A stretch of DNA of 32,485 nucleotides from Promethearchaeota archaeon (lineage in GTDB: Archaea > Asgardarchaeota > Lokiarchaeia > Sigyniarchaeales > SOKP01), in NCBI GenBank assembly GCA_048938025.1, contig JBHLMP010000042.1:1-32485 (forward strand), read 5' to 3'. The position numbers and the translations under genes were made by a program. Positions within the stretch are counted from its first letter, which is position 1; each line of letters opens with the position of its first letter. The notes beneath the pieces were generated by a model that searched no databases, was not told where the DNA came from, and saw nothing but the letters and a program-made list of their open reading frames with translations. Shown here piece by piece: positions 13,104-18,526 of this stretch.

Positions 13104-14021
13104 ATGAGTAAAGATTATATTCAAGATTATATTAAGGCTGGAAAAGCAGTAATAGCTGCCAAGAAGTTAGCAAGTAAAATTATTCATCCTGGTGCATTAT
13201 TTTTAGAAATAGCTAATAAATGTGAAGCTGAAATTATAAAAAACGGTGCAAATTTGTCTTTTCCCATTAATATGTCTTTAAATGAGATAGCTGCTCACTA
13301 TAGTCCACCAATTGATGATAATACTATTGTTCCAGAAAAAGGTTTGTTAAAAATTGATTTAGGAGCTCACTTTAATGGTTATATAGCAGATTCTGCTTTT
13401 ACAATTAATATTGATGGAGATCCAAAGCTACAAAATTATATTGATGCGGCAGAAGAAGGCCTTGAAGCTGCAATTGCTCTATTTAAGCCGGGTACAAAAT
13501 TATATGAGTTAGGAGGTGCAATTGAAGAAAAGATTAAAAGTTATGGTTTAAAACCAATTAGAAATCTTGGCGGTCATGAATTAAAGCAATATAATCTCCA
13601 TGCAGGCCCATTTATACCAAATTATTTGGAAAAAAGGCATAACAATATATTAAAATCTGGAGATGCATTTGCATGTGAACCATTTGCAACTTCAGGACAA
13701 GGATTAGTTGAAAATGGAGATCATGCCTATATATATCGATTTGTTAAAAAAGTAAAGAAAAATATACCCTATGAGCTACAAAACTATATGAATAAAATTG
13801 AAAAAAACTTTAGACGACTTCCGTTTTCACCAAGATGGATTGAAAATAACAATTTAATACCTAAGAATAGAATAATGAGAATTATTAACGATTTTATAAG
13901 AAAACAAGTCCTCGATAATTACCCTATTTTAATAGAAAGAACTCGTGAACCTGTAGCTCAACAAGAGCACACAATAGTAATTGATGAGGAAGGGAATACA
14001 ATTGTTACCACTAAAGAATGA
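13104..14021 (+). CDS. map: Type II methionine aminopeptidase
   Basis: AAHY, KIDLGAHFNGYIADSA, GGH, EPF and EHT metal ligands. Confidence 0.95.
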   Translation: MSKDYIQDYIKAGKAVIAAKKLASKIIHPGALFLEIANKCEAEIIKNGANLSFPINMSLNEIAAHYSPPIDDNTIVPEKGLLKIDLGAHFNGYIADSAFTINIDGDPKLQNYIDAAEEGLEAAIALFKPGTKLYELGGAIEEKIKSYGLKPIRNLGGHELKQYNLHAGPFIPNYLEKRHNNILKSGDAFACEPFATSGQGLVENGDHAYIYRFVKKVKKNIPYELQNYMNKIEKNFRRLPFSPRWIENNNLIPKNRIMRIINDFIRKQVLDNYPILIERTREPVAQQEHTIVIDEEGNTIVTTKE

Positions 14022-14907
14022 ACTTCGAAGTAAAATCTCAGTTATTATTTTGTGTGCAGGAGAGGGAACACGCTTCAAGGAAATCACTAAAAATTTACCA
14101 AAACCATTATTAAAAATTAAATCATTAAATAATACTACGATTTTACATCATACAATAAATAATTTTATAAAGCTAGGAATAAACCAAATAGCAGTAATTA
14201 AAGGACATTTAGGATATCAAATTGATGAATTTATTTCTTCACTTCAAAAAATAAAAAAAGATCTAACAGATAAATTATTAATTATTGATTCTGGTTTTGA
14301 TTATAAGTTAGGTCCTTTATATTCATTCTTATCTATGACTAAAAATAACATGATTTTTAAGAAAGATAATCTATTTCTCGTAATTCCTGGAGACACTATA
14401 TTTGAGTTTAACCTTCTAAATGATATAATTATTACACTAATGAATAATTCTAATCTCATTCAAGAATATCCAATACTTTTTTACAGAAAAATAAAAGTTA
14501 GTAATTTAAAAGAAAAACATAACAACGTTATTCAAAATTCCCCTAAATTTATTTCAATTGTCCAAATTGAAAGTAAAAATTCGAAGACCTTTTTAAAAGC
14601 AATTCAACAAGAAGATTTGAGAGTTGTTCAAGATCTAGAAATCATAAAGCAAGTAATACCAATATTCTTATTTAATTTCAAAATAGTGAATAAGTTTTTA
14701 AAATTAAAAGAAAAAATCTCAGCAAACACAATAAGGGAAATTATTACTTATATGATTAATAATGGAGAAAAAATAATTGCCATTGAAATTGATAATAGAT
14801 TTGAATTTTATGATATTGATTCTAAATTGGATTTGTATAATTATAATCTTAAAAAAAAAAAGATGGACAATAGGAACTCAGATTTTACTCAGATTTGTAG
14901 TAAGTAA
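13981..14907 (+). CDS. Sugar-phosphate nucleotidyltransferase-family protein (start uncertain)
   Basis: ILCAGEGTRF...LPKPLL, PGD and DID motifs. Confidence 0.85.
   Translation: MMRKGIQLLPLKNELRSKISVIILCAGEGTRFKEITKNLPKPLLKIKSLNNTTILHHTINNFIKLGINQIAVIKGHLGYQIDEFISSLQKIKKDLTDKLLIIDSGFDYKLGPLYSFLSMTKNNMIFKKDNLFLVIPGDTIFEFNLLNDIIITLMNNSNLIQEYPILFYRKIKVSNLKEKHNNVIQNSPKFISIVQIESKNSKTFLKAIQQEDLRVVQDLEIIKQVIPIFLFNFKIVNKFLKLKEKISANTIREIITYMINNGEKIIAIEIDNRFEFYDIDSKLDLYNYNLKKKKMDNRNSDFTQICSK
14851..14861 (-). terminator. U11 tract directly after the putative ncRNA
   Basis: A11 on the plus strand abutting the 3' arm of the terminal helix. Confidence 0.6.
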
Positions 14908-15323
14908 GGAATTAACGATATTATACCCCTATGAACCAAATCTGTAATCAAAGCTCCTATTCTTTAGCACACATTTTTAATGTTAGACTCTGTTTAAATG
15001 TCTCGTGTTTCAAAAAAAAAAAACCACACTCGAACAAGAACTTTAGGAACAAAGTCTGTGAGTCTCAATTTCCATTAGTGATATAAGCGTAAATCCATTA
15101 AAACTCTTCGCTTAGATGTTTATATTTAGTTCTACTGTATAAGACACTACAGGAACATCATGAAATAACTTTAGAAAAGATACAGAGTATTTATTTACTC
15201 CTTAAGATATCAAATAAAAAAATATTGTCGGAAATAACGATTACATTAGAAATATTGTTACAAATTTGTCGTTATTTGATTTTATCTAACTACTCCAATG
15301 CATTATTAGACCTATTATCCATC
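14862..15323 (-). ncRNA. Putative ~460-nt structured non-coding RNA of unknown family
   Basis: 13-bp terminal helix GAUGGAUAAUAGG/CCUAUUGUCCAUC with one U-G pair. Multiple internal helices, an upstream TATA box, a downstream U11 tract and no long ORF inside. Confidence 0.7.
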
Positions 15324-15347
15324 CAATTAGATATATAACAATTTGAC

Positions 15348-15362
15348 TATTTAAATGTTTTT
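15348..15362 (-). promoter_or_regulatory. BRE/TATA promoter for the putative ncRNA
   Basis: Minus strand reads AAAAACA-TTTAAATA; the TATA box ends ~25 nt before the first paired base (15323). Confidence 0.5.
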
Positions 15363-15469
15363 ATTAAAATTTAAAGACTATTCATCCCTTTAAAGCACAA
15401 TTTTTGAAGTTTAAAACGATTTTCATTTTGAAATAATATATAAATCTATATTTACTTTATTTATAAAAT

Positions 15470-15856
15470 ATGACAGATCAAGGACAAATACCTATAAAAA
15501 TCGAATTATTCGGCATTGGGACATTAGAGGGTCATATTATTCGGCATATAGCACCTCTTTCTGCAGATGCCATAATTAATAAAATGCCAATTATTCTTCG
15601 TGGACGATTTAGCTTTGGCTCTAAAAAATACTGGACATTACCTGGTATAGAAATTTATAAAGGACTAAATTCTAAATCAGTTTCAGAAGTGAAAAAGGGC
15701 GATATTGTATATAATCCTAAAACCGATGAATTAATGATTATTATAGAAGCTTTTGAAATGCCAAATAAGATAAATATAGTAGGAAAAGTTATGAGTAATC
15801 TCGAATTATTATTAAAAGCAAGAAATGGATTAAATACTAAAATTCTTAGAATATAG
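15470..15856 (+). CDS. Cyclophilin-like fold protein
   Basis: RHIAPLSADAIINKMP, VKKGDIVY and NIVGKV pattern of archaeal cyclophilin-like (TM1367-type) proteins. Confidence 0.65.
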   Translation: MTDQGQIPIKIELFGIGTLEGHIIRHIAPLSADAIINKMPIILRGRFSFGSKKYWTLPGIEIYKGLNSKSVSEVKKGDIVYNPKTDELMIIIEAFEMPNKINIVGKVMSNLELLLKARNGLNTKILRI

Positions 15857-16684: not shown

Positions 16685-16858
16685 TTATTGCTGATTATTA
16701 TTTAAACAATTTTTGCATACAAAAACAGTTTTTCTTTTTTTCTTAGAGTTTTCATCGAAATAAATACGTTTATAAATAAAATTCTTACATATCTCACAAA
16801 CTGCTTGAGTACGTGTTTCTTCTAATAACGGACCTAAGTTTTTAAAATTAGTAGTCAT
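16685..16858 (-). CDS. Small C4 zinc-ribbon protein, 57 aa (not in ORF track)
   Basis: MTTNFKNLGPLLEETRTQAVCEICKNFIYKRIYFDENSKKKRKTVFVCKNCLNNNQQ. ATG lies 4 nt after the Alba stop and the ORF fills the gap. Confidence 0.75.
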   Translation of the reverse strand: MTTNFKNLGPLLEETRTQAVCEICKNFIYKRIYFDENSKKKRKTVFVCKNCLNNNQQ

Positions 16859-16862
16859 AGAA

Positions 16863-17189
16863 TTAAATATATGATTTCATTTTAAGCGTAATTTCAATTT
16901 TAGAAATAAGATCTTTTTTGTTTTTATTATTTTCATTTTTTCTTTTGTACTTTCCTCCTTGTTCTTTGTTAAAAAATGGACGGCTCCCTAAAGACACATT
17001 GGCGATTTCTACACTAGGATACATTCTATGCTTAAGAATTTCTGCGACTTCTACAGCTGTACTGATTTCTTCTCCTTCTCCTTTTATCAAAAGGGCTTTT
17101 TTCCCACCCGATAATGCAAAAATCGCATCTTTTATTGTTTTTTCTTTTTCAGCTCTATGCTTTATAACGAGTGTTGTCTCATTTGCCAT
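16863..17189 (-). CDS. Divergent Alba-family nucleic-acid-binding protein
   Basis: IKGEGEEISTAVEVAEILKHR...VSLGS...ISKIEITL follows the Alba pattern KARGxAISxAVDVAE...IGS...SxIEIxL. Confidence 0.8.
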   Translation of the reverse strand: MANETTLVIKHRAEKEKTIKDAIFALSGGKKALLIKGEGEEISTAVEVAEILKHRMYPSVEIANVSLGSRPFFNKEQGGKYKRKNENNKNKKDLISKIEITLKMKSYI

Positions 17190-17404: not shown

Positions 17405-18526
17405 TTAAGCGAGAAAATTTAGTTCTGCTCGAGAATTTAGCTCTTCCAATATTTTATTATACTCAGAACTTCTTTCTTCAAAATATTCGATTATTTTTCT
17501 CTCATTAGTATCTAAGTAATCATAATAAGGAAATATCACTTCTATCCGTTTAGAAAAATCTTTGATTAATCGGTCATACCATTCATTAGGTTTTTTCAAC
17601 ATATTTTTGACTTTTTTTTGCAGTTTTTCTTTTCTTAACTTATATTTTTCATGTTCATTCTTTTCGATTAATTTATCTAACTCGTCATAACTATCGGATA
17701 TTAACTTCTCTAACTTTTCCCTAAATTTAGGAATTCGATATGATTTTTTGAAAAAAGCAGGATCCCACTCATATAGATAGCGTTCATCCATTCCAGCTTC
17801 TTGCTCATTATCAGTCACTATAATATCTTCCTTAGGTACTAAAATTAATCCGAAATTTCTTTGTATTTGAGCCAGTGCTTTCTTACGGAGTATCTGATCA
17901 ATATAATTAACTTCATCTATTACTTTTTCCATGTTTTTATTGATTTTATCTATTTCTTCTTCAGAATTTTTAAGCATTATTTCTTTCTTTAACTCGTATT
18001 TCAATTCGATAAGATCATAAGTAGAAGAAATACCTCTATTTGGATCCTTTAATCTTAACCCAGCTATTCCTAAAAAATGTGAATCTGATTTTCTTTCACA
18101 ATGATCGAAGACTAATCCAAGAGCGTAAGGATTCGGGATTTGGTAACCTAATTGAGTCATACAATCAATTGGAGAATAAAAAAAACCAAAACCTGGATGT
18201 GTATGCCACCAACCAATTATAAAGTCATTTCTTTTGTCTTGGATAGATCTTTCAAAGACTGAGGCATCAATTTGCGCCATATCAACGTATTGTTTATTTT
18301 CATATTTTACACCTGCTCTATCTCCAACTACCATTGGAATTGCATCTTTTATTATAACTTCAGCTTCATTTTCTATTGATCCTATTAAGATGCCATATAC
18401 TTCACGCCATTTACTCTCATCTAAATGATCATTTGCATATCTTATAGCATAACCACAAATTTTTCTATATGCTTTATAAGTTAAATGAGCAGGTGAATAA
18501 TAAGGATCTACCTTTTTCTTTTTCAT
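17405..18526 (-). CDS. MPN+/JAMM metalloprotease (Rpn11/CSN5-like) with long helical C-terminus
   Basis: EVYGILIG and GWWHTHPGFGFFYSPID, an intact E...HxH-x7-S-x2-D motif. Confidence 0.88.
   Translation of the reverse strand: MKKKKVDPYYSPAHLTYKAYRKICGYAIRYANDHLDESKWREVYGILIGSIENEAEVIIKDAIPMVVGDRAGVKYENKQYVDMAQIDASVFERSIQDKRNDFIIGWWHTHPGFGFFYSPIDCMTQLGYQIPNPYALGLVFDHCERKSDSHFLGIAGLRLKDPNRGISSTYDLIELKYELKKEIMLKNSEEEIDKINKNMEKVIDEVNYIDQILRKKALAQIQRNFGLILVPKEDIIVTDNEQEAGMDERYLYEWDPAFFKKSYRIPKFREKLEKLISDSYDELDKLIEKNEHEKYKLRKEKLQKKVKNMLKKPNEWYDRLIKDFSKRIEVIFPYYDYLDTNERKIIEYFEERSSEYNKILEELNSRAELNFLA

Follow-up and report, generated by a model that had tools for sequence, protein, structure and literature searches.

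What occupies the largest apparent gap in a gene-dense stretch of an Asgard archaeal genome? Among prokaryotes, Asgard archaea are the nearest known kin of eukaryotes, and to our knowledge their non-coding RNAs have hardly been explored. Prokaryotes have few structured non-coding RNAs above about 400 nt, and those with known function are mostly ribozymes or the cores of ribonucleoproteins (RNPs). We examined a stretch of 32,485 nucleotides from a Promethearchaeota archaeon of the class Lokiarchaeia (the window), for which a preliminary description had proposed a large non-coding RNA on the minus strand of the gap. Our analysis indicates that the gap probably holds a gene, present in one copy and inherited vertically, whose product is a stable, structured non-coding RNA of an undescribed class, limited as far as detected to one family of Lokiarchaeia. 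Searches of published full text turned up no report of such an RNA. The promoter, the two ends of the predicted RNA and its internal landmarks are as follows, in the direction of transcription:

15348-15362, minus strand: archaeal promoter, with the TATA box TTTAAATA behind a purine-rich, BRE-like stretch
14851-15324, minus strand: predicted transcript of about 474 nt, starting at G15324/G15323 and ending within the U11 tract
15311-15323, minus strand: 5' strand of the terminal helix P1, GAUGGAUAAUAGG, 13 bp with 14874-14862
15295-15302, minus strand: motif UGCAUUGG just past the P1 5' strand, with a near-invariant core GCAUUGG
15232-15277, minus strand: lineage-specific 5' hairpin AAAUAACGA/UCGUUAUUU, in the closest relatives only
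15216-15234, minus strand: kept block UUUCCGACAAU plus internal U-tract 1 (U7, 15222-15216)
15129-15156, minus strand: conserved block GUUCCUGUAGUG, a local hairpin in the window
15062-15066, minus strand: first GAGAC motif, a kept column block
15001-15039, minus strand: hairpin region whose loop is U-tract 2 (U12, 15023-15012)
14999-15004, minus strand: second GAGACA motif (ACnnGAGACAU), the best-kept word of the interior
14875-14963, minus strand: 3' domain, a long irregular hairpin with a basal stem, a helix and an apical GG/CC stem
14862-14874, minus strand: P1 3' strand CCUAUUGUCCAUC, exact partner of GAUGGAUAAUAGG
14851-14861, minus strand: U11 tract, taken as transcription terminator and 3' oligo-U tail

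The TATA box at 15355-15348, the 13-bp helix joining the ends and the U11 tract at 14861-14851 had all been proposed before, and each can be read directly in the sequence. The box lies on the minus strand 31-32 nt ahead of the terminal helix; the distance from its first T to the first paired base of P1 is 29-31 nt in 53 of 53 full-length copies, and the promoter block AAnAAGATTTAAATA is kept in every aligned homologue. It is well supported that the RNA is driven from the minus strand by a BRE/TATA promoter of its own. We placed the start at G15324/G15323 from its distance to the TATA box and from where the helix begins, and a transcript that begins at the first base of the end-joining helix and closes with an oligo-U tract is likewise well supported. 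A run of at least five U follows P1 in most extracted homologues; in L007, L028 and L087 the run is interrupted, or none lies within 8 nt of P1. Against about 474 nt in the window, the RNA measures 370-650 nt among relatives.

Covariation is strong for P1 only. At least ten contiguous base pairs, compensatory changes included, form in 63 of 63 distinct homologues, and seven core positions are paired in every one of these sequences. Position 3 is a CG pair in 46, UG in 12 and UA in 5; position 9 is GC in 32, UA in 21 and AU in 7, with GU, UG and AC once each. Under shuffle controls that ignore relatedness among the homologues, the covariation score is 0.207 compared with 0.093 and the cells with both sides changed number 85 compared with 44, neither value being reached in 500 shuffles; 84.9% of cells are paired, as opposed to 34-58% when the partner is slid. 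The single wobble among the 13 bp of the window, U15317-G14868, becomes an A-C mismatch when the opposite strand is read, which agrees with the earlier observation that it exists on the minus strand alone. An extension of P1 in which GCAUUGG would pair with the bases immediately preceding the P1 3' strand was rejected as a general feature: comparing RNAduplex results with 100 shuffles per sequence gave a mean z of +0.07 over 63 sequences, with z below -2 in four of them, all from genus g13.

The RNA is present in sequenced libraries as a discrete unit that is read through two internal U-tracts, a conclusion that is well supported. Metatranscriptome contigs of 408, 354, 389 and 385 nt, from four studies, are 94-97% identical to the window. 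They lie wholly within 14911-15311, no RNA-library contig reaching beyond 14886-15319, and in one run the RNA is covered at a depth of 108 with zero depth over both flanking genes. These contigs are unstranded and their ends inexact, and the ends and strand of the transcript were placed from sequence features; their confinement to the element bears out the expectation of a transcript here. The caveat that U12 might terminate transcription early is partly answered, because all four contigs run across it, as they do across U7. RNA libraries may contain DNA, though coverage of the flanks would then be expected.

Inside the clamp formed by P1, all internal helices of the preliminary description are present in the window sequence (four verified base by base; three, including hairpin 15156-15129, by paired words and the fold), but only some have been kept in evolution. 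The 9-bp helix 15277-15269/15240-15232, perfect in the window when its letters are checked base by base, is already disrupted in L002, a relative 94% identical, and is missing from L010 and L011; in most of the genus a hairpin tipped by ACGGU...ACCG replaces AAAUAACGA/UCGUUAUUU. Hairpin 15201-15184 was verified base by base in the window, and the helices 15159-15154/15120-15115 and 15114-15109/15089-15084 were matched as paired words in the sequence and in the fold. The 6-bp helix 15065-15060/14990-14985 is restricted to the closest relatives. In the 3' domain, which has the basal stem AGCUUUGAUU/AAUCUGAGU, the 8-bp helix CAGAUUUG/CAAAUCUG (14944-14937/14897-14890) is kept among homologues with shifted registers.

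The motif UGCAUUGG is fully kept across a 32-sequence genus alignment, one g14 subgroup having AAAUCAUUGG in its place. U-tract 1 is a hairpin loop in some lineages, where the closing stem is either CCGA/UCGG or GUGA/UCAC. For U12 the window offers UCUUGU (15039-15034)/ACGAGA (15006-15001) or GUGU (15029-26)/ACAC (15008-05), and the closing stems vary by lineage (GGUA/UACC, GUGU/ACAC, UAGCA/UGCUA). In most relatives GUUCCUGUAGUG pairs over a long range with GCACU..GGAGC; this partner belongs to a conserved block and has lost 10 nt in the window, through a deletion whose junction lies near 15106/15105, where the RNA contigs report no insertion. According to model R2 and pair counts, this mid helix (GUUCC..AGUGC/GCACU..GGAGC) is 93.6% paired in 32 sequences, in which its covariation is not above shuffles; divergent genera lay beyond the reach of R2.

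A covariance model built on the 3' domain (R1) scores 109.6 bits on 14851-14963 and, among homologues, 61-128 bits on the sense strand compared with 30-47 bits on the opposite strand. In 56 distinct sequences 86.9% of its cells are paired and the covariation score is 0.076 compared with 0.058 in shuffles (0 of 500 as high), with two of five measures not above shuffles (two-sided changes, 5 versus 6.7; further pair types, 24 versus 25.3). Near-invariant U-G pairs occur in its stem (UG in 54 and 51 of 56), as they do in P1. Two plain MAFFT alignments, one of 25 and one of 32 sequences, are not structure-aware and misplace the 5' end of one subgroup; from them RNAalifold recovered the 3' basal stem alone, with 0 compensatory pairs. 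A consensus of single-sequence pair probabilities yielded further candidate helices. That the interior evolves fast and is poorly kept between genera, the 3' domain being replaced in some of them, is well supported.

The RNA occurs once per genome in at least eight genera, all of one Lokiarchaeia family. Its own genome has one copy, blastn finds matches in 45 of 53 genomes of the genus, and R1 finds it in 48 of 53, with a single sense-strand match in each. Across the family R1 detects 91 of 131 genomes (g1, 47/52; g14, 37/42; g16, 5/8; g17, 1/6; g23, 1/1). Genera g12, g13 and g15, which R1 misses, nevertheless hold a homologue of 541-648 nt in the same syntenic slot, sharing promoter, 5' motif, P1 and U-tail. 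The pattern GGAYAAUAG-N2-12-GCAUUGG is found in 74 of 134 family genomes, one each except for two in G136, and in 0 of 26 genomes from other families of the class. Five matches elsewhere in the phylum, in 265 genomes outside the family, were rejected as chance: they fall inside ORFs, the stretches inspected holding open frames of 164-280 codons, none has a TATA box or 3' arm, and their rate is about that of a reversed-pattern control (4 in 400). Family-wide retention of the promoter, P1 and the 5' word GCAUUGG is well supported. The earlier suggestion of an undescribed class of large non-coding RNA holds, but its Asgard-wide scope does not: as far as detected by these sequence searches, the RNA appears restricted to one Lokiarchaeia family. 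A MITE or other dispersed repeat, which would show as many copies, was rejected, there being one match in the own genome, one locus per genus genome and no dispersed copies, with constant flanking genes.

The slot itself is conserved. The gene order is MetAP, NTP-transferase, RNA, cyclophilin-like gene and VTT; the cyclophilin-like gene is divergent from the RNA in 52 of 53 loci and the NTP-transferase gene convergent to it in 32 of 33 genus loci. In other genomes of the family this intergenic slot holds the same element with a covarying terminal helix, as the preliminary description had anticipated for a genuine RNA. A cis leader or riboswitch was rejected, since the element ends in U11 on the minus strand and what lies beyond is a convergent gene of the plus strand, 3' end first. 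A real transcript could still act in cis, or by antisense or promoter interference on its fixed neighbours, by ending or overlapping the NTP-transferase mRNA or through coupling with the divergent cyclophilin-like promoter some 110-150 nt away. The same two genes do flank the RNA at every locus with enough flank, and the NTP-transferase open reading frame of the window (13981-14907) enters the RNA 3' end by 57 nt. Most relatives, however, have no such overlap, because their NTP-transferase homology ends at residue 279-281 and the gene stops about 20 nt before the RNA 3' end. Moreover, an RNA of 450-650 nt with a covarying clamp far exceeds what a terminator or promoter needs, the libraries cover the RNA and neither neighbour, and the order is conserved all the way from MetAP to VTT, so that the adjacency may be merely inherited. 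We regard action in cis as rather improbable.

Could the RNA instead belong to a known class but have diverged so far that Rfam misses it, for example as an RNase P/MRP-like paralogue, a multi-hairpin H/ACA or C/D guide or an rRNA fragment? We consider this very unlikely. Its size and closing helix do recall RNase P and SRP RNAs, and the SRP RNA of this lineage (C38:101193-101509, full model length) scores 78.3 bits, under the Rfam cut-off of 96.5, which shows that Rfam models under-score here. Yet genuine RNase P and SRP RNAs lie on other contigs: the archaeal RNase P model RF00373 has its sole own-genome match at C27:3126-3448 (133.6 bits), and neither it nor the SRP model RF01857 has a match in the window or a second one in the genome at E up to 1. 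The RNase P motif GAGGAAAGUCC is absent from the sequence, ARAGORN reports 0 tRNA or tmRNA genes in 14500-15700, and rRNA models have no match in the window, so the motif absences noted earlier are confirmed by model searches. Small- and large-subunit rRNA models find nothing in the MAG itself and, in two single-contig relatives, no more than an SSU fragment of 123 nt.

Rfam (release 15) gives no match at gathering score in the window, in line with the earlier suggestion of novelty, and no strong match to any known family emerged. Around the RNA there are three chance-level matches (E 0.53-5.3), and 12 homologous loci yield four weak matches spread over four different, unrelated families. One of the former, SNORD127 at 14871-14959 (23.4 bits, E 0.53, gathering score 45), together with UGAUUA and CUGA words that flank the terminal stem of the 3' domain in the window, resembles a box C/D sRNA. 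This candidate was rejected: the D-box-like CUGA is CGGA in most of 56 distinct sequences, where its bases form a plain Watson-Crick/G-U stem, the C-box-like word reads UGAUU and not UGAUGA, and the C/D-like domain is part of a 470-nt RNA. For H/ACA RNAs there is an ACA word right after a hairpin (GAGACA) and one weak model match in 1 of 12 loci (E 3.9).

Short words recur within the RNA (GGAGC about three times; AAUAG, CAUUGG and GAGAC twice each), as a decoy or guide might require that titrates an RNA-binding protein or pairs with, for example, the anti-Shine-Dalgarno end. AAUAG is repeated in 50 of 64 sequences, GGAGC in 45 and CAUUGG in 21, and the RNA is abundant in one metatranscriptome. 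Most of these words, however, are taken up by pairing within the RNA: the mid helix and the basal stem of the 3' domain use GGAGC, and P1 uses AAUAG. Short repeats are also expected by chance at 28% G+C; the counts, being uncontrolled for this, give no support, and we hold a sponge or guide to be highly improbable.

That the gap is no RNA gene at all, being a decayed or small-protein coding region or regulatory DNA whose AT-rich sequence pairs as a by-product, is barely credible and largely refuted by P1 compensatory changes that preserve pairing across about 450 nt, by strand-specific G-U pairs and by discrete RNA contigs from four studies. The gap does hold open reading frames of 31-56 codons, but a protein-coding gene was rejected: the frames are split in 93-94%-identical relatives, and the longest stop-free run averages 57 codons compared with 54 in shuffles. 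The checks that the preliminary description had proposed all came out neutral or favourable. AT-rich DNA pairs readily, and minimum-free-energy z-scores, one of those checks, were modest. The window RNA has -2.18 on the minus strand, a value matched by 1 of 100 shuffles, and -0.61 on the plus strand; in six homologues (15 shuffles each) the scores run from -0.97 to -5.17 in sense and from -0.64 to -4.82 in antisense, moderate values that do not separate the strands.

What a stable structured RNA of this kind might do can be proposed from its anatomy. We suggest that it acts in trans as an RNP scaffold, a function to which we give somewhat less than an even chance. In such a particle the covarying clamp would shield the RNA ends, and the invariant single-stranded words UGCAUUGG, GAGACA and AAUAGGA would serve as recognition sites. 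Sm-like proteins bind U-tracts, and the RNA offers candidate sites for such proteins (SmAP/Lsm) in its U-rich loops and 3' oligo-U tail. At the start of the P1 3' strand, the five bases CCUAU have two possible partners, the 5' arm and an internal AUAGG (14960-14956), so that the RNA could take up two conformations.

A bolder and unlikely version makes the RNA the core of an as yet unseen Asgard RNP with a eukaryote-like or catalytic role, its activity gated by a conformational switch. This would be an Sm/Lsm-bound particle resembling an snRNA or Y/vault RNP, or else an RNA that regulates the transcription machinery as 6S and 7SK do. In the switch, the 3' strand AAUCGGAGC-N-CCUAUUGUCC would have the 5' end and an internal look-alike, AAUAGGAGCUUUGAUU, as alternative partners.

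Several known RNAs offer parallels. Archaeal RNase P RNA (RF00373), the core of an RNP, is likewise several hundred nucleotides long and single-copy, with its own promoter and a P1 that joins its ends; archaeal SRP (7S) RNA (RF01857) shares paired ends, abundance, a housekeeping-like character and a pol-III-like oligo-U end. Y, vault, 6S and 7SK RNAs are 80-330 nt long and defined by Ro60/La, MVP, RNA polymerase and HEXIM/P-TEFb, respectively. By analogy, they may be likened to the candidate in a terminal stem made by the ends, a variable interior, 3' oligo-U and a dedicated promoter; Rfam searches reveal no sequence or model similarity to them. OLE, GOLLD, ROOL, HEARO and raiA are large, lineage-restricted structured RNAs that were recognized by comparative genomics before any function. 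They differ in being bacterial or phage RNAs, the interior of our candidate is much less conserved, and their models in Rfam release 15 have no match at or near threshold.

With its promoter, ends and clamp helix defined, an RNA that is expressed and occurs throughout a family can serve as bait for partner proteins and is open to study through enrichment cultures and metatranscriptomes. That the largest intergenic gap of a gene-dense genome is itself a gene also bears on the annotation of MAGs. For recognizing further members of this family, the Lokiarchaeial clamp-ended RNA, we propose five features: a TATA box 29-31 nt before the helix; a 5' GGAYAAU arm forming at least 10 bp with a 3' AUURUCC arm; GCAUUGG soon past the 5' arm; a 3' oligo-U tract; and a slot between the NTP-transferase and cyclophilin-like genes. 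The window has all five.

The largest intergenic gap of the window very probably holds an RNA gene on the minus strand (predicted transcript 14851-15324), and our analysis gives good support for an RNA that has its own promoter and terminator, is expressed, and carries a covarying helix clamping its 5' end to its 3' end. We confirmed that the TATA box, the 13-bp paired ends with a U-G wobble and the adjoining U11 tract claimed in the preliminary description can all be read on this strand.

Features of the locus
13981-14907, plus strand: NTP-transferase-like ORF (Pfam PF00483, E 3.7e-10)
14908-15469: gap between the NTP-transferase-like ORF and the cyclophilin-like ORF
15470-15856, plus strand: cyclophilin-like ORF (PF18050, E 1.9e-4, slightly below the Pfam cut-off)
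15355-15348, minus strand: TATA box TTTAAATA, read in the sequence
15323-15311 and 14874-14862, minus strand: arms GAUGGAUAAUAGG and CCUAUUGUCCAUC of the terminal helix P1, exact partners over 13 bp with one U-G wobble
14861-14851, minus strand: U11 tract directly 3' of the P1 3' arm
14963-14875, minus strand: 3' domain, a long irregular hairpin (model-fitted alignment, 56 distinct sequences)

In 53 distinct full-length copies, P1 pairing begins 29-31 nt downstream of the first T in the TATA box, the distance at which archaeal transcription is expected to start. Lineages with longer helices (GAUGGAU.., GAAGAGGAU.., GAAAAGGAC..) keep this spacing, their helix being extended outward rather than shifted.

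Folding energy gave weak evidence for the RNA. The shuffle comparison proposed in the preliminary description favoured the minus strand in the window (MFE -99.8 kcal/mol, z = -2.18, 1 of 100 dinucleotide shuffles equally good; plus strand -76 kcal/mol, z = -0.61, 27 of 100), but when six homologues were each compared with 15 shuffles, z ran from -0.97 to -5.17 on the sense strand and from -0.64 to -4.82 on the antisense strand, ranges too similar to tell the strands apart; the case for an RNA gene rests on comparison with relatives. We compared 63 distinct P1 sequences from eight genera: none is unpaired at any of seven core positions, and the run of contiguous pairs is never shorter than 10. 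Position 3 is CG in 46, UG in 12 and UA in 5, and position 9 is GC in 32, UA in 21, AU in 7 and GU, UG and AC in one each. Over 14 positions, 84.9% of cells are paired, compared with 77.3% in shuffles (0/500) and, with a slid partner, 34-58%; cells changed on both sides number 85 versus 44 (0/500), and the covariation score is 0.207 versus 0.093 (0/500) in shuffles that ignore relatedness. Pairs with any double change (6 versus 5.7) and further pair types (14 versus 12.6) show no excess. At one position the three types of Watson-Crick pair belong to different genera, which looks like the pattern of compensatory evolution. Thus the syntenic covariation that had been suggested as a check is present in the terminal helix, with the element in the same slot in relatives.

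This slot is conserved. As far as the fetched flanking sequence reaches, the genes are arranged as MetAP, NTP-transferase, the RNA (convergent), cyclophilin-like (divergent) and VTT-domain protein, with the cyclophilin-like gene at 52/53 loci and the NTP-transferase gene at 32/33 genus loci. NTP-transferase homology stops at residue 279-281 in most relatives, ~20 nt before the RNA 3' end, and overlap of the ORF with the RNA, by 57 nt, is confined to the window's own lineage. This extension (14824-14907, plus strand) adds ~27 codons after the homologous part, which in most relatives stops at residue ~281, reads the complement of the U11 tail (KKKK) and of the P1 3' strand, and is common only to the closest relatives.

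The RNA gene appears, on good support, to be vertically inherited in one archaeal family. By blastn, the locus was found in 45 of 53 other genus genomes, with full-length matches at 94, 93, 79 and 70% identity and elsewhere as two collinear conserved ends ~500 nt apart. R1, a covariance model built for the 3' domain from alignment A1, matched 48/53 genus genomes, each once and on the sense strand, and, in the order sample, 91/131 genomes of the RNA's own family (g1 47/52, g14 37/42, g16 5/8, g17 1/6, g23 1/1) and 0/19 genomes in three other families. Genera g12 (0/4), g13 (0/5) and g15 (0/7) had no R1 match; their slot, located via the neighbouring cyclophilin-like gene, holds an RNA gene of 541-648 nt that shares the promoter, 5' motif, terminal helix and U-tail and differs in its 3' domain. 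In an other-family genome, a long ORF, PRPP synthetase-like by eye, occupies the slot upstream of the cyclophilin-like homologue (33% identity). Matches to the strict pattern GGAYAATAG-N2-12-GCATTGG came from 74/134 family genomes, spread over 8 genera, with one match per genome apart from two in G136; genomes from six other families within the class gave 0/26; a reversed-pattern control matched once in 161 genomes. A phylum survey of 400 genomes gave 5 further matches in 265 non-family genomes versus 4 control matches, and all 5 were rejected, having no TATA box or 3' arm and, in the fetched stretches, open frames of 164-280 codons. Public records with the neighbouring gene are labelled Promethearchaeota or Promethearchaeia archaeon, with a few other Asgard labels. 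Two genomes have double matches, for which a second copy, mixed strains or contamination may account: G136 (g15) to the 5' motif (G136:C1:11126-11151 and G136:C5:521967-521986) and G144 (g14) to the 3' domain on separate contigs (G144:C57 and G144:C117).

Six metatranscriptome runs share about one-tenth of the sampled words of 14700-15600, and we aligned four of them, from four studies, to the window. Their contigs (408, 354, 389 and 385 nt, each differing from the window at 10-14 bases and by 5-11 gaps) lie wholly inside 14911-15311. Depth is 108 in one run, and no bin beyond 14886-15319 has any coverage, which leaves both flanking genes at zero. Assembled contigs carry no strand, end or level information, and RNA libraries may contain DNA, although carry-over would be expected to cover the flanks too. 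The contig edges, at the start of blocks common to many species, are likely an assembly effect. The contigs cross both internal U-tracts, which answers in part the concern about an early stop at U12 (15023-15012). Two more contigs (428 and 423 nt; runs X15 and X18) match only a 35-nt conserved block (14928-14962, minus strand) and then diverge, which suggests more distant homologues of other species, transcribed in the same samples.

Internally, all helices listed in the preliminary description are present in the window, but several, 15277/15240 and 15065/14990 among them, occur only in the closest relatives. In the 3' domain, 86.9% of cells are paired across 56 sequences versus 34-56% when slid; the covariation score (0.076 versus 0.058 in shuffles, 0/500) and double-change cells (28 versus 17.3, 0/500) are raised, and double-change pairs show no excess (5 versus 6.7, 474/500). 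Other lineages retain its helix CAGAUUUG/CAAAUCUG in other sequences and at shifted registers, and five species have a shorter version; near-invariant U-G pairs in the basal stem (54/56, 51/56) would be C-A mismatches on the opposite strand. CCUAU in the 3' strand has two potential partners, the 5' arm (variable position paired in 62/63) and an internal AUAGG (40/53 cells at the matching pair), leaving room for two conformations. A mid helix (GUUCC..AGUGC/GCACU..GGAGC) is 93.6% paired in 32 sequences reached by R2, a second model, and is too conserved for covariation to be visible. The window and the 94%-identical locus L002, unlike the 93%-identical L009, have a 10-nt deletion near 15105/15106 (minus strand) in the otherwise conserved block AGCACUUUGGAGC; it removes part of the mid-helix 3' strand, and the 5' strand forms a local hairpin instead. 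The RNA contigs show no insertion at this point, which suggests expression of the deleted form. Both internal U-tracts often lie in hairpin loops, whose stems vary by lineage.

What the RNA does is a matter for tentative readings. We somewhat hesitantly propose, at rather less than even odds, that it serves in trans as an RNP scaffold: across the family, conservation is strongest in the clamp and in the short single-stranded words UGCAUUGG, GAGACA and AAUAGGA, with the interior free to vary, much as in RNAs bound by proteins at their ends. U-rich loops and an oligo-U tail are plausible, putative Sm-like protein sites. A cis-regulatory role at this conserved slot is possible, as is a sponge or guide. 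A divergent member of a known RNA family is also possible; no Rfam family reached its gathering score within the window, and permissive searching gave only three chance-level matches in the region (E 0.53, 4.9, 5.3) and, at 12 homologous loci, four matches to four unrelated families (E 3.7-4.5). The reported absence of RNase P, SRP and tRNA motifs holds: ARAGORN found nothing, and genuine RNase P RNA (133.6 bits) and SRP RNA (78.3 bits, full model length) genes each lie on another contig. A dispersed repeat (MITE) is dismissed by the single copy of the 512-nt stretch in its own genome and one sense locus per genus genome, and a protein-coding gene by small gap ORFs that break up in 93-94%-identical relatives and open-frame lengths equal to those of shuffles. 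With no matching family in Rfam 15 and no description of such an Asgard or Lokiarchaeia RNA in a full-text search of openly accessible articles, the RNA is, on this evidence, a new family.

The lineage's SRP RNA (own genome, contig C38:101193-101509, minus strand) matches the whole Rfam model below the gathering score of 96.5 bits and would therefore escape standard annotation. SSU and LSU rRNA had no match in this genome or in the single-contig relative G006, and one 123-nt SSU 3' piece was found in G023, also single-contig; rRNA genes in these genomes may be unassembled or interrupted. A 57-aa zinc-ribbon-like ORF with a subthreshold SNAPC3 match (E 0.001; 19.2 versus 23.8 bits) adjoins an Alba-family gene (E 2.1e-8) and a JAB/MPN-domain protein (16685-17189 and 17405-18526, minus strand); these genes, of RNA- or ubiquitin-related kinds, lie ~1.5 kb from the RNA gene.
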